DNA from: Octopus sinensis
Lineage: Eukaryota
Length of the DNA: 64,000 nt
Direction of reading: 5' to 3'
Assembly: GCF_006345805.1 (NCBI RefSeq)
Contig: NC_042997.1
Span: forward strand, 163,060,001 to 163,124,000
Every line of letters starts with the position of its first letter. The first letter of the stretch is position 1. A model generated the notes under the pieces. The model made no database searches, had not been told where the DNA came from, and saw only the letters and a list, made by a program, of their open reading frames with translations. Shown here in pieces: positions 1,783 through 55,062 of this stretch. A program made the translations under genes and the position numbers.

Positions 1783-1989
1783 TGATATATATATATACAT
1801 ATATATATATATACACATATATATATATAATACACATATATATATTACACACATATATATACACACATATATATATACACACACATATATATACACATAT
1901 ATATATACCACATATATATATACACATATATATACACAATATATATATACATATATATATATACACATATATATATATATAATATACAC

Positions 1990-2020
<31 letters not shown>

Positions 2021-2158
2021 TATATATATATACACATATACAATATATATATAATATACATATATACACACATATATATATTAACATATATACACATATA
2101 TATATACACACATATATATATATATATATACACATATATAATATTATATACACATATA

Positions 2159-2208
<50 letters not shown>

Positions 2209-2272
2209 TATATAATATATATATATACACATATATAATATATATATATACACATATTATATATATATACAC

Positions 2273-2303
<31 letters not shown>

Positions 2304-2596
2304 TATATATATATACACAATATATATATATATATACACACATATATTATATATATACACACATATATATATATATATATACACATATATATATATATAT
2401 CACACATATATATATATACACACATATATATATATATATATATACACATATATATATATATATATATACAACATATATATATATATATATAACACATATA
2501 TATATAGATATATATATATATATAACATATATATATATATATATAACACACATATATATAATATATATATACAATATATATATATATATACACATA

Positions 2597-2632
<36 letters not shown>

Positions 2633-5077
2633 ATACACATATATATATATATATATATACACATATATATATATATATATATACACATATATATATATAT
2701 ATATATACACATATATATATACACATATATATATATATATATAACATATATATATATATATTATACATATATATATACACATATATATATATACACATAT
2801 ATATATATAACATATATATATATACAATATATATATATATATATATATAATATACACATATATATAATATATATATATATATACCATATATATATATTAT
2901 ATATACATATATATATATATACACATATATATATATATATATACATATATATACATATATACACATATATATATACATATAACATATATATATATACACA
3001 TATATATATATACATATATATATATATACACATATATATTATACACATATAATATATATACACATATATATATATACACATATATATATATACACATATA
3101 TATATACACACATTATATATATATACAATATATATATATACACATATAATATATATACATATATATATATATACACATATATATACACACATATATATAT
3201 ATACACATATATATATATACACTATATATATACATATATATATACACATATATATATACACATATATATACACATTATATACACATATATACATATATAT
3301 ATACATATACATATTACATATATATACATATATATATACATATACATATATATACATATATATACATATATATATACATATACATATATATACATATATA
3401 TATACATATACATACATATATATATACATATACATATATATACATATACATACATATATATATACATATACATACATATATATATACATATACATACATA
3501 TATATACATATACATACATATATATATACATATACATATACATATATATTATATACATATATATATAATATACATATACATATATATATACATATACATA
3601 TATATATACATATATATATACATATACATATATATATACATTACATATATATTACATATATATACATTATACATATATATACATACATATATACATATAT
3701 ATATATACTATATACATATATATACATACATATATACATATTATACATATATATATACATTATATACATATACATAACATATATATACATATACATATAT
3801 ATACACATATACATACATATATATATCACATATACATACATATATATACATATAATATATACACATATACATATATTACATATATATACATATATATACA
3901 TATATATACATATATATATATAATATATATATACACATATACATACATATATATATACACATATACACATATATATTACACATATACATACATATATATA
4001 TACACATATACATACATATATATATACATATACATAATATATATATACATATATATATATACATATATATACATACATATATATATACATATATACATTA
4101 TATATATACATATATATACATATATATATACATACATACATATATATATAATATACATATATACATTATATATATATATATATAATATATATATACATAT
4201 ATATAATATATATATACATATACATATATATATACATATAATATATACATATACATATATATATCATATACATATATATATAACATATATATATATATAT
4301 CTACATATATATACATACCATATATACATATATACATACATATATACATATATATACATATATATAGATACATATATATATACATATAATATATACATAT
4401 ATATACATATACATATACATATATATATATACATATATATACATATATACATATACATATATATACAATATACATACATATATATACATATATATATACA
4501 CATACATATATATACATATATATACATATATATAACATATATATACATATTATATATACATATATATATACACATATACATACTATATATATATACACAT
4601 ATAATAACATATATATTACACATATACATACATATATATACACATATACATACATATATATATACATATATATACATACTATATATATAACATATACATA
4701 ACATATATATACACATATACATATATATACATATATATACATATATAATATACATAATATACATACATATATATACTATATACATACATATATATACATA
4801 TATATACATATTATACATACATTATATACATATATATATACATATATATACATATATATACATATATATAATACATATATATACATATATATACTACATA
4901 TATATACATATATATACATATATATACTACATATATATACATATATATACATATATATACATATATATACATACATATATATACATATATATATACACAT
5001 ATATATACATATATATATACACATATATATACATATATATATACACATATATATACATATATATACACATATATATC
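1783..5077. repeat. Giant (~3.3 kb) compound (TA)n/(CA)-interrupted microsatellite
   Basis: Almost pure alternating purine-pyrimidine A/T/C sequence. It is the source of the many YIYI/CVYI ORFs. Confidence 0.97.
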
Positions 5078-5119
5078 ATAAGAGAGTTTTTTTTTTTATT
5101 TTACATGAAATTCCCTTAC

Positions 5120-5205
5120 CTTTCAGAGCAGAAAGATTCAGCACCTCCTTTGGTCACATGACCACATGGAGACTTCCTATCATGATCAACACTGTAGTTT
5201 TTAAT
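5120..5205 (-). CDS. Internal coding exon, 86 nt ([28 protein letters not shown] + AG, phase 0 to 2)
   Basis: Strong acceptor aattttttcttccag| and strong donor AAG|gtaagg. Only the phase-0 frame is open; the other two frames contain stops. This matches the phase-0 donors upstream. Confidence 0.7.
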
Positions 5206-9877: not shown

Positions 9878-10060
9878 CCACATCCAAAAGATGCTCCTCA
9901 TAATTAGCTCATAGATACACCCATCTTTTTCTTGTCACTCCTGCAGTGTGTCATGCCACTTAGGCACCATACAAACTGCAGTGTCTAATCTTTCTTCTTC
10001 TGGGCATCAAACATTCAGAATTCCTTCCTTGGCCATATTTTACCTGCTGGGATTAACTTA
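9230..10060 (+). mobile_element. LINE ORF2 C-terminal remnant split by a microsatellite
   Basis: KTQVKHTMEYCS..DSA ... DHIQK resembles the YKAQIRPxMEYCSHIW...LDRIQK motif. Confidence 0.6.
9545..9875. repeat. (TA)/(CA) compound microsatellite with a 14-bp higher-order unit TATATACACACACA
   Basis: Directly visible. It interrupts a LINE remnant. Confidence 0.95.
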
Positions 10061-11524
10061 CTAATGTTCAAACTAAACATCAATCATATTCATCTTAGCA
10101 AGTCTTAGAGAACCTGCAATGGTCATGAGCATTGTCCCCTGTTCAGAGTGTCAAATGAAATGTGTTGCAATATTTATTTTACATGTCTGAGTTCAATGCT
10201 CAACTTCCACTGAGATGAATTTTGCCTTTTGTCTTTTCAAGGGCCAGTAAAGAAAATACTACATACTGTTACATCCTGGATGTTCTGCTGTGTCAAGAGT
10301 TGGGGACTGAGAAGTGTCTATGTCTATTTGTGGCTTCATGGGTACATAAAACAATTAGTGAAACCCTGGTATATGCTACCAAGTCACCCTCAGTCCTGAG
10401 TGATGGTTGTACTTTATCTAGAACTGCATGATATTACAAAATTTGCTGCAGCGCTCCATCACGTACTCCATCTATCAAATGTCCATAACATTTCAATAGA
10501 AAGCTTTGCTGACAGCTAGTCATACATAATATTCATGTGAATACTGTTAATTGCCAGAACATAAAGAGGATGTTGTGTAGTAATCTAGAGGGAGACAGAC
10601 ATATAAAACAGTTCATGCAAGTAGGATTAACATTTTCAATACATGGCAGAACATATCAATGTTATTACGATAGTGTAAAACACAGCTATGTAACTGAGAA
10701 ATGGAATGCACATTTTTTTTTGCACATTTGGAGACAATAGATTTATTAGTTACAGTATTGCTGAAATAATGGTTTAATTTAGTTTGTTGTAATCATCCTT
10801 CTATATAATCATAAAATAACAGAAATATATAAATTTATTCAAATATATGGGTAGTTGTTTTAACCTATTTCCATAAGCTGACAACGCGCAAACTAGCTGA
10901 TTAAATTGCCTCTTATCAGAAATAGTATTAAGCAAATTACCCTTCAACAAATCAACCTCTGTCCAGTAAAGAATTCATAAAAACAAATAAATAGGTTATG
11001 TATTATCCATTAAAGCCCAATCAGGCAAATCTTCATATATTTTTTTTCTTACTGTGACATCCTTCAAAAAAAATTGCAAAATTTAAAAAATATTAGCTAA
11101 AATTGATTTGTACAACATGTGGTCTAGTCATGCAAAAATGGTGAAAAAAAACTAATACACTTAATAATTCTATAAGAAATAATGTTACACATGAAAAATA
11201 AGAAATCCAGTTAATTTGTATTAATCAACATTAACGAGATCAACAACAGTAACAGTTGTGAAGTCTAATGAACACAAGAATACTTACAATATATTTTGAT
11301 ATAGATATCTTTCATTTAAGCCCATGCTATAAAGTAGTTGGTAATGGCATAAAATATGCCAAAAGCACATGCCATATGCAACAACAAAACAGTGACATGC
11401 TTTTCTCTGCTGTTGTATGTACATAGAAAAAGGATCCCGCCACATGCAGCATGATGCTGCCATCCAACCCATACCAAAAAGGAGGAGGAGGATATACCAC
11501 CGCCTACTTGCAGAAGCAACTTAC

Positions 11525-11539
11525 ATACTTCATAGAAAA
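11525..11539 (-). CDS. Candidate 15-nt microexon (FSMKY), frame-preserving
   Basis: Reads ttttttcttttactataattag|TTTTCTATGAAGTAT|gtaagt, with a consensus GTAAGT donor, length divisible by 3 and an open phase-0 frame. Four GCATG motifs lie within about 200 nt downstream. Confidence 0.55.
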
Positions 11540-11596
11540 CTAATTATAGTAAAAGAAAAAATTCATGTCTCTCCTAATTTACATCAGGGTATGTAG

Positions 11597-11599
<3 letters not shown>

Positions 11600-11635
<36 letters not shown>

Positions 11636-21015: not shown

Positions 21016-21093
21016 CTGGGGTGGATTAGATACAACTCGTGGCCTTTTTCGTTTCGAACCACAAATGAATAAATCCATAAATACAGTCTTCAT
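21016..21093 (-). CDS. First coding exon of an unidentified minus-strand gene (MKTVFMDLFICGSKRKRPRVVSNPPQ, phase-0 donor)
   Basis: The minus strand reads tccaacATG (good invertebrate Kozak context), then 26 open codons ending CAG|gtaaat. It lies just downstream of the main CpG-enriched region. It splices in frame to the exon at 5120-5205. KRKRP is NLS-like. The protein family is not recognised. Confidence 0.6.
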
Positions 21094-38480: not shown

Positions 38481-39688
38481 CAGGTCATCCCATAAGTTCT
38501 GTCCGATTTTACCTTTTTTACAATTGAATGAAATTTAATAGTATTTTAGAATGTCTAATAGAATTAAAAATTATTTTTATGAATTTTTTATGCATTTGTG
38601 TACATTTAAACTAATTAAATATTATTTTACAGAATAGAATTAAAATTTCTTTGATTAAAACCCTTTCCAACCTGGAAATATCCAAAGAGCATTTGAGGCA
38701 CATAATGTTTTATGAGTACAAAAAAGGAAACTCTACAGCCAAAGCGACTTGAAACATACACTTAGTTTATGGGAAAGAATGCTTGAATGAAAGAACTTGC
38801 AGAAGATAGTTTTCAAAATTCAGAAGTGAAGATTTCAGCTTTGAAGATGAAGACCGAACAGGATGTCCAGTTGAGTTTGATGATAAGCTCCTTGAGGCAT
38901 TACTTGAAGAAAATCCTGCATTATCAGTTGAAGAATTGGTAATAAAGCTTATTGTCATCTTCAACAACTTGGAAAGGTTCCAAAACTTGGAAAATGGGTG
39001 CCTCATGAATTGTCTGAAAGCAACCGCAAATCCTGAGTTGACATCTGCTCTTCTCTCCATTCTCGCGAACTCATTTCACCCTTTTTAGATAGACTTGTGA
39101 CTGGTGACAAAAAAATGGAACTTCTATCGACATGTTAAACATTGTAAACAGTGGCTTGGTAAAAGGGAAAAAGCTCAACCATAACCGCGAAGGGAAATTC
39201 ATGGGAAAAAGGTTCTCTCTATCTGGTGGAATTGCAAAGGAATAATTCACTTTGAATCAAGCTTTGAAGAAAAAAAAGACCTGCTTTAGTGAATCGAAAA
39301 GGAGTGATGTTTCATCAGGACAACGTGCAACCCCACACTGCAAAGATCACATCACAGAAGATCGAAGAGCTTGGTTGGGAAAAAATTCCTCATCTACCTT
39401 ATTCTCCTGACCTTGCTCCTTCAGACTACCATTTGTTTCATAGTTTACAGAATCATTTGGGGGACATAACTTTTGCAAGCCAGGAGGAGGTCAAAACTGA
39501 CATTTCAGAGTTCTTGGCTTTGAAACCAAAAGAGTTTTACATTGATGGGATTAAAAAGCTTGTAAATAGATGGAATGAAGTTATAGATAATCAGGGAAAG
39601 TACATTGATGATTAAATTTCAATTAAATATAACATTTGATCACTTGTTTTCTTTATTCAAAATTCAGACAGAACTTATGTGATAGCTA
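38481..39688 (+). mobile_element. Mariner (D,D34D-type) DNA transposon, near full length, transposase pseudogenised
   Basis: Degenerate TIRs aggtcatcccataagttctgtccgatttt / aaaattcagacagaacttatgtgatagct. Fragments translate to HLRHIMFYEY, WVPHEL, LVTGD, FHQDN and YSPDLAPSDYHLF, with stops, frameshifts and an internal deletion. Confidence 0.93.
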
Positions 39689-54099: not shown

Positions 54100-54830
54100 A
54101 TTTAAGGATGGCTTCATATCTTGATGTGCTTCTTTCCACTGCATTGTTCCTTGGTTTATGGTGCCGTTACCTTGATATGTACATTAATTGACTAAGTGCT
54201 GCTGAAAGAAACTGGATAATCATGCTTTCACTGGGAGATGCTTCAATGAACAACAGGTATCTGTTCATTGAAGCAGTGCAAGTTCAGCAAGTGCGAATAA
54301 ATTGCATGCACATGCTGCTCATGTTTGGGAAGTTAAAAAGAAGAGTTATGATTTGCATTGGAATGTCTGTGGTGAAGAGTGAAGTAAAGAAAGAAAAGTG
54401 TGGATGACTGAACGAGACTTTAGGATACACCAAAAATGAGGGCAGGGAGGAACAGGACCTCCATCAGCACATTCTATAATGATGTGATTAGACAGCAAGT
54501 TTCCAATCCAAGAAATGATAGACAGGTGACAGTCATAGGTTGGTAAGTTAGGAGGTTCTCATACCAGACTGTTAAAGCCTTTGCTGATATCAAAAGTTCT
54601 CACTGGTGAGAAACTACTGATGACTAACAGGAGAGTAAGATTGTGATAGATATTGTTCTATGGAAACAGTATTAGTGGTCACTGAACAGGGAAACAAACT
54701 CGAGACGATGGAGGTTATTTTTGACAACTGTTTACATTGCCTTTAAGATGTGGGAAGAGAGTGTGGCAGGGTAGGACAGACACCCCTCTTTAGATGGCAT
54801 GCATGTTCAAATGATTTCATAATTTAACAT
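54100..54830 (-). mobile_element. LINE RT remnant (similar family), minus strand
   Basis: The reverse complement gives FDISKGFNS, LPTY..SWIGNLLSN and STLFFLY. Confidence 0.7.
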
Positions 54831-55041
54831 GCAGTGCAATATTTCATAGCTAAACAGGTATGCTACTTCTTATATGAGACCAGTATTGCATGATGGAATA
54901 TGTGTGTATATGTAAAATATTACTTGATTTTTAGATTGCCATTGGAACAAAGAGAAAGAGAGACAATACCAGTTATCAAGCTTCAAATAAAGTGAGCTAA
55001 AGGAACAAATTAAAAAAAAAAAAGAAATCAAATCAACATAC

Positions 55042-55062
55042 CTCAAGCTTTGTCTTAAGCAT
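55042..55062 (-). CDS. Candidate alternative start (MLKTKLE) at the 3' end of a 148-nt exon, 55042-55189
   Basis: Strong acceptor tttttcctctttctcattcag| at 55190 and donor GAG|gtatgt. The aacATG start has an in-frame stop upstream. The phase-0 end is compatible with exon 5120-5205. Confidence 0.4.

Follow-up and report, generated by a model that had tools for sequence, protein, structure and literature searches.

The stretch of Octopus sinensis DNA analyzed here (64,000 nt, hereafter the window) lies in a gene read on the minus strand. Judging from its domains and protein matches, this host gene is the octopus RalGPS gene. A profile search matched the RasGEF domain (PF00617) on two exons located downstream of the window, the next exon, used as a query, retrieved RalGPS proteins from octopus and from other molluscs, and the exons map to named RalGPS proteins bearing both PF00617 and PF00169. 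The association of a RasGEF domain with a C-terminal PH domain, by which RalGPS proteins are recognized, was thus found, and the gene is an ordinary annotated member of this family. The pentapeptide FSMKY, which would be encoded by the 15-nt candidate microexon considered below, is absent from every isoform listed.

The exon map was established from four isoforms placed on 264 kb. The exon at 5205..5120 (minus strand, 86 nt, IKNY...SER) is the common acceptor of several alternative first exons. It is the second exon of two of them, with coding parts at 21016..21093 (minus strand, MKTVF...NPPQ) and at 55042..55062 (minus strand, MLKTKLE). Direct joins to 5205 were observed in RNA runs X16 and X17 for the former and in X16, X17, and X22 for the latter, the join in X22 being obtained by deconvolution of a blended loose end. 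Once the 55042 exon was subtracted from the X22 pattern, the remainder gave one genome match, directly followed by GTAAGT on the strand of the gene. This distal exon extends from G000:C1:163185203 upward (minus strand), 120 kb above the 5205 exon to which it is joined in run X22, and ends with an in-frame TAG immediately before GTAAGT. It fits the short RalGPS isoform X8; it is non-coding in that frame and its surroundings are CpG-rich. Another first exon, 20 kb past the low end of the window (G000:C1:163039843-163040003, minus strand, MLETTV...), bypasses the 5205 exon. The first exons of the gene number at least four, and three of these join to 5205. The N-terminal region that holds the candidate site is poorly conserved and differs widely among molluscs.

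Structure of the Candidate Microexon

The candidate occupies positions 11525..11539 (minus strand), 9.5 kb below the 21016 exon and 6.3 kb above the 5205 exon. Its 15 nt are in phase 0 and read FSMKY, with an in-frame ATG at 11533 that carries a T at -3. The putative 3′ splice site (11540..11561, minus strand) is weak; it is made of a U-rich tract at 11561-11551, followed by ACTATAATTAG at 11550-11540, so that an A-rich stretch stands between the tract and the AG of the final TAG, and its AG-free zone measures 27 nt. On the other side, the putative donor GTAAGT (11519..11524, minus strand) is the commonest donor of the RalGPS gene (11 of 20). The original prediction, which described a TAG, 15 nt, and a GTAAGT in this order on the minus strand at 11539-11525, was right about each of these elements and their places. 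It was also right about the phase of FSMKY, as the upstream exon end at 21016 and the downstream exon start at 5205 are both in phase 0 and 15 nt keep the frame. The element thus has the structure of a cassette microexon, i.e., 3-27 nt between an AG and a GT, with the frame kept and no stop codon.

Splice sites were scored with a model trained on one gene (18 acceptors and 20 donors of RalGPS), which is crude. With this model, the candidate acceptor scored 5.0 and 15 of the 18 real RalGPS acceptors scored higher (leave-one-out), while the donor was average, with 10 of the 20 RalGPS donors above it. The overlapping GTATGT donor that had been predicted to give an 11-nt form is present and scored 6.7 vs. 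8.8 for GTAAGT; a 3-nt form would also be possible through the internal AG of the candidate. No TGC occurs in the last 30 nt of the acceptor. In a genome search that skipped common words, the candidate stretch was single-copy. The search for a repeat origin of the region yielded no more than 17 nt echoing a common repeat, and an exact 24-mer scan of metagenome contigs gave 0 matches.

Downstream GCAUG Cluster and GC-Rich Block

All five downstream motifs announced by the prediction were found on the minus strand: TGCATG at 11448-11443 and 11134-11129, and GCATG at 11400-11396, 11372-11368, and 11327-11323. Their offsets from the candidate donor are +78, +125, +153, +198, and +392. The four proximal motifs (11323..11448, minus strand) read TGCATGT, AGCATGT, GGCATGT, and AGCATGG. 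The distal TGCATG (11129..11134, minus strand, +392) is broken at 11132 in runs X4, X8, and X10, and because of this change it probably lies outside any conserved element. Three inverted repeats of 7 bp, formed around GCAT/ATGC, either overlap the motifs or lie next to them (window 11350-11460).

The motifs had also been described as partly included in an unusually GC-rich non-repeat block. This block (11430..11520, no strand assigned) is indeed GC-rich and single-copy, with 52.7% GC, a value reached or exceeded in 2.3% of the 91-nt windows over 464 kb; only one of the five motifs is inside it. The block corresponds to no Rfam family and to no stable fold. The fold gave z = -1.23, with 26 of 200 shuffles equally good, and the two Rfam matches, both at 11551-11620, were far under the gathering score. 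An intronic small RNA (snoRNA, miRNA) was rejected on the basis of these sub-threshold matches and of the ordinary fold. In three low-depth DNA runs, cover was lost over the GC-rich part (window 11250-11550), which may be due to a filter, to heterozygosity, or to depth.

Chance Expectation

AG..GT pairs of 9-27 nt whose length is a multiple of 3 were counted over 464 kb. At the scores of the candidate, 4 pairs were found on the minus strand and 1 on the plus strand; within 1 score unit the counts were 7 and 6, and within 2 units 20 and 22. The antisense strand holds similar pairs just as often, so that the pair of splice sites is by itself ordinary and within chance.

The cluster of motifs gave another picture. 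Over 928 kb, groups of four GCATG within 130 nt were encountered 10 times. Judged by eye, nine of these consist entirely or in part of GCAT/ATGC microsatellites, which leaves the cluster of the candidate as the only non-microsatellite one, on the sense strand. For similar 5-mers, the median in this 928-kb sample was 1.5 clusters. With comparable 5-mers (27 control words), four copies fell together in 0.11% of the 250-nt windows, and this number was not attained in any of the 1107 site-by-control-word tests at slack 2. The proximal downstream intron thus carries (U)GCAUG above chance, as in Rbfox-regulated exons, with 4 motifs in 250 nt, and the proximal cluster exceeds local chance. By our own arithmetic, made after the fact, the coincidence of an in-frame pair with such a cluster would occur about 0.001-0.003 times (0.1-0.3%) per 64-kb strand, and some 80-270 chance cases would be expected genome-wide (2.7 Gb, both strands). 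Over the whole genome, short AG..GTAAGT units with a TGCATG coming 5-35 nt after them were not in excess (40 vs. 45 for the reverse-complement control); this count is a weak test, being dominated by repeats and restricted to spans of 5-35 nt.

Transcript and Protein Evidence

Four probable RNA runs were compared with the 5205 exon, and three of them, from three studies with unspecified tissues, covered it, the fourth (X13) having no cover there. Two joins to 5205 were seen in each of X16 and X17, from the 55042 and 21016 exons, and two in X22, where the loose ends were blended. None of the 6 contigs crossing the 5205 junction in these 3 runs contained the 15 nt. This absence is evidence against inclusion, although modest, because the tissues of the runs are unspecified and contigs drop rare forms. 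A sequencing-run search on 11100-11600 returned no RNA run among the matches listed, and was not used as evidence.

The prediction also held that annotation would miss the element, and FSMKY was indeed absent from all 12 octopus and argonaut protein models that span the junction (among 15 of 23 cluster members). Five of the same 12 models include another microexon of the gene, of 18 nt, which shows that annotation is able to catch such exons. Among the Logan relatives, which are probably other cephalopods according to their identity, 14 were aligned and 10 span the junction, 5 of the latter with the 18-nt exon; none of the 10 has a five-residue insert at the junction, and one has two extra residues there. 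No homologous FSMKY insert was found in the 142 fetched proteins. A search with the 5205 exon gave no match among proteins of 22-72 aa, and among longer proteins it returned only the octopus cluster representative.

Conservation in Relatives

Four DNA-sized runs (X4, X7, X8, X10) were compared over window 9950-11595. X7 barely differs from the window and so represents no independent species; its cover, like that of X8 and X10, is missing over parts of 11250-11595. The cover of X8 ends at 11247 and that of X10 (about 5% diverged, with changes listed mainly up to 10888) at 11408, which places the candidate exon outside both. Run X4, a close relative, spans 9950-11595 in one contig with 38 substitutions. 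Its listed changes in 11105-11595 are at 11132, 11273, 11420, and 11478; the list for this interval was taken as complete from the ranking of the table, and all 42 gap letters are accounted for. Two deletions also lie there, one of 3 nt at 11379 and the other of 13 nt starting at 11506, which leaves GTAAGT whole. No listed change falls in the exon, the acceptor, GTAAGT, or the four proximal motifs.

Nevertheless, the calm of X4 appears not to be specific to the candidate, because the adjacent intron (10445-11104) is similarly unchanged, with 6 listed changes. Also, at 1-2% divergence, the lack of change over some 66 nt would be unremarkable. The conservation of 11320-11560 proposed as a check of the candidate could be read in X4 only, where the neighboring intron has changed just as little and the distal UGCAUG is lost. 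Over window 10450-11595, about 1% change was measured vs. X4 and X8, against 3-6% over 9957-10450, and this contrast is absent vs. X10. The low change over 10450-11595 could reflect constraint, or a faster decay of the repeat-rich part.

Comparison With Known Microexons

The 18-nt microexon is annotated in the same gene (YVFGFSPN, G000:C1:162991854-162991871, minus strand), within the RasGEF domain, where Y-D becomes YVFGFSPN. Like the candidate, it has a TAG acceptor, a GTAAGTTG donor, and no UGC in the last 30 nt. Downstream, it has TGCATGT at +28 and AGCATGT at +137, an order of motifs that is the same in the candidate. Unlike the candidate, it occurs in RefSeq models for two species of octopus as well as in 8 of the 14 Logan relatives, and its acceptor is better (8.0 vs. 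5.0). The likeness in motif order is the best argument for a real exon at 11525..11539, yet it is one example. The 18-nt microexon is a better Rbfox test case than the 15-nt candidate.

In human brain, TGCATG is described as the one motif enriched downstream of RBFOX-enhanced alternative micro-exons (Li et al., 2015; PMC4317164). If the candidate functions like any known system, it would be these exons, with which it shares a length that is a multiple of three and a TGCATG in the downstream intron. They differ in that the human exons were defined by junction reads and conserved flanks, whereas the candidate is known from sequence alone, and in that only one of its four proximal motifs is a full TGCATG.

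Neural microexons that depend on the eMIC domain of Srrm3/4 and Srrm234 follow another code, described as a UGC near the AG, a UCUC-rich tract, a strong CUAAY branch point, and a long AG-free zone (PMC8797185). The candidate resembles the exons described there in being very short with a weak 3′ splice site. It departs from them by lacking both a UGC close to the AG and a tract rich in UCUC, and by having an ordinary 27-nt AG-free zone, no CUAAY (the nearest match being CTGAT at -48), a strong donor, and long introns. Its assignment to the eMIC/Srrm4-type neural microexons was rejected on this cis-code.

Concerning the regulator, an Rbfox-like (RBFOX3-like) transcript has been reported from Octopus vulgaris (PMC5736919). 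The Fox-1_C profile (PF12414), which covers this domain only and not the RRM, had no match in the genome. Alternative splicing in octopus was reported to reach its highest level in neural tissue and to be nothing exceptional for an invertebrate (PMC9699675); RalGPS and the word microexon do not occur in 65,650 characters of its supplements. Our literature search on Rbfox-driven inclusion of short exons in cephalopods returned no paper. A study of 20 species with vast-tools, Octopus bimaculoides included, may list this exon (10.64898/2026.09.05.749416).

Interpretation

The reading of the 15-nt site as an exon is unproven. The best explanation, to which we would grant about an even chance, is that these 15 nt are a pseudo-exon skipped in all or nearly all transcripts. 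The first exons would then be joined straight to the 5205 exon, as observed for three upstream exons, and the 15 nt passed over. With a weak acceptor and introns of 9.5 kb and 6.3 kb, so short a unit would need a helper in order to be defined, and the cluster of GCAUG could stand beside one of many AG..GTAAGT pairs by coincidence or serve something else. The absence of the 15 nt from the 6 junction contigs, the 12 models, and the 10 Logan relatives argues for skipping, as do the acceptor, weaker than 15 of 18 and without UGC before the AG, the frequency of similar pairs in antisense, the lack of conservation of the distal UGCAUG, and the lack of a genome-wide excess of the motif order (40 vs. 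45). However, a sense-strand cluster of this kind is rare, its coincidence with an in-frame pair at 0.1-0.3% per 64-kb strand likewise, the annotated 18-nt microexon has the same layout, X4 has no listed change in the exon, splice sites, or four motifs, and the RNA came from unspecified tissues with contigs that drop minor forms. The chief rival reading is a real, tissue-restricted cassette microexon enhanced by Rbfox through the downstream GCAUGs, which we hold as tentative and somewhat short of even. Through its binding to the four GCAUGs, Rbfox would bring the spliceosome to the strong donor, and the weak acceptor would in this way be rescued; inclusion would take place in neurons or muscle and would place FSMKY in the variable N-terminal tail, about 100 residues before the RasGEF domain. 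A rare, strand-specific cluster at a position known for alternative microexons (PMC4317164) points in this direction, together with a kept frame without stop, the layout of the 18-nt microexon, 4 listed X4 substitutions in 11105-11595 that all spare the element, a 13-nt deletion that spares GTAAGT, and the Octopus vulgaris transcript mentioned in PMC5736919. It is opposed by the 6 junction contigs, the 12 octopus models, and the 10 related transcripts, none of which shows inclusion, by the low change of X4 being common to the adjacent 10445-11104, by the 142 proteins without a homologous insert, and by the poor conservation of the N-terminal tail among molluscs.

Two other readings bear on parts of the element. 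GTAAGT might belong, as donor, to a further alternative first exon, starting upstream of 11540 and using the ATG at 11533 for a protein beginning with MKY, the acceptor being incidental. The multiple first exons of the gene (at least four, with three joining to 5205) and a donor stronger than the acceptor would agree with this, and oyster and mussel RalGPS models include N-termini of 3-5 residues that start with MK before the equivalent exon. But the ATG has T at -3, where annotated starts have A in two of three cases and T in the third, the CpG observed/expected ratio downstream is 0.28 vs. 1.10 for the 21016 exon and 0.71 for the distal exon (0.00 for the 55042 exon), and such an exon is absent from the 6 partners of 5205 seen; we consider it improbable. 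Even less probable, in our judgement, is that the cluster is a functional element unrelated to the exon, either a DNA enhancer with the palindromic CATG as its core or a set of remote Rbfox sites that would influence the 5205 acceptor or the donors of first exons. In X4 and X8, divergence from the window is lower over about 10450-11595 than over 9957-10450 (for X8, 8 changes in 732 nt vs. 17 in about 500 nt), and three motifs read RCATGY on both strands and sit in short inverted repeats, whereas X10 offers no contrast (47 changes in 1021 nt vs. 19 in 379) and CpG is not retained. The weights given to all these readings are judgements and not computed values.

Returning to the cassette microexon, we regard it as possible, though below an even chance, that it is an unannotated octopod-specific exon of RalGPS, switched on by Rbfox without the eMIC/UGC code and the second such exon in the gene. 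This would suggest an Rbfox-driven microexon programme in cephalopods, parallel to the mammalian one, with a two-exon test case within one pre-mRNA. A real exon would add one microexon to an annotated gene and provide a clean assay of Rbfox-driven inclusion of short exons in cephalopods; if always skipped, it is no feature at all. A large effect of the insert on the protein is unlikely, because it falls in the poorly conserved N-terminal tail.

Other Features of the Locus

Several observations were made elsewhere along the gene. A SYLCYS variant (G000:C1:162980054-162980072, minus strand) was rejected as a cassette exon, since it comes from the use of another 3′ splice site, 18 nt upstream; in one Logan relative (P0043), the version counts 13 residues. 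Two alternative last exons, at G000:C1:162972049 and 162968402 (minus strand), account for the C-termini LRPKCS... and TPVNLMSFD, respectively, the former being found in O. sinensis models only. In the window, a TA/CA microsatellite of 3.3 kb (1800-5090) lies directly below the 5205-5120 exon, and below the 55042 first exon two TGCATG fall within 250 nt of its donor (54740-55041, minus strand). Finally, broken reading frames at 38810-39612 (plus strand) resemble a mariner-type transposase.
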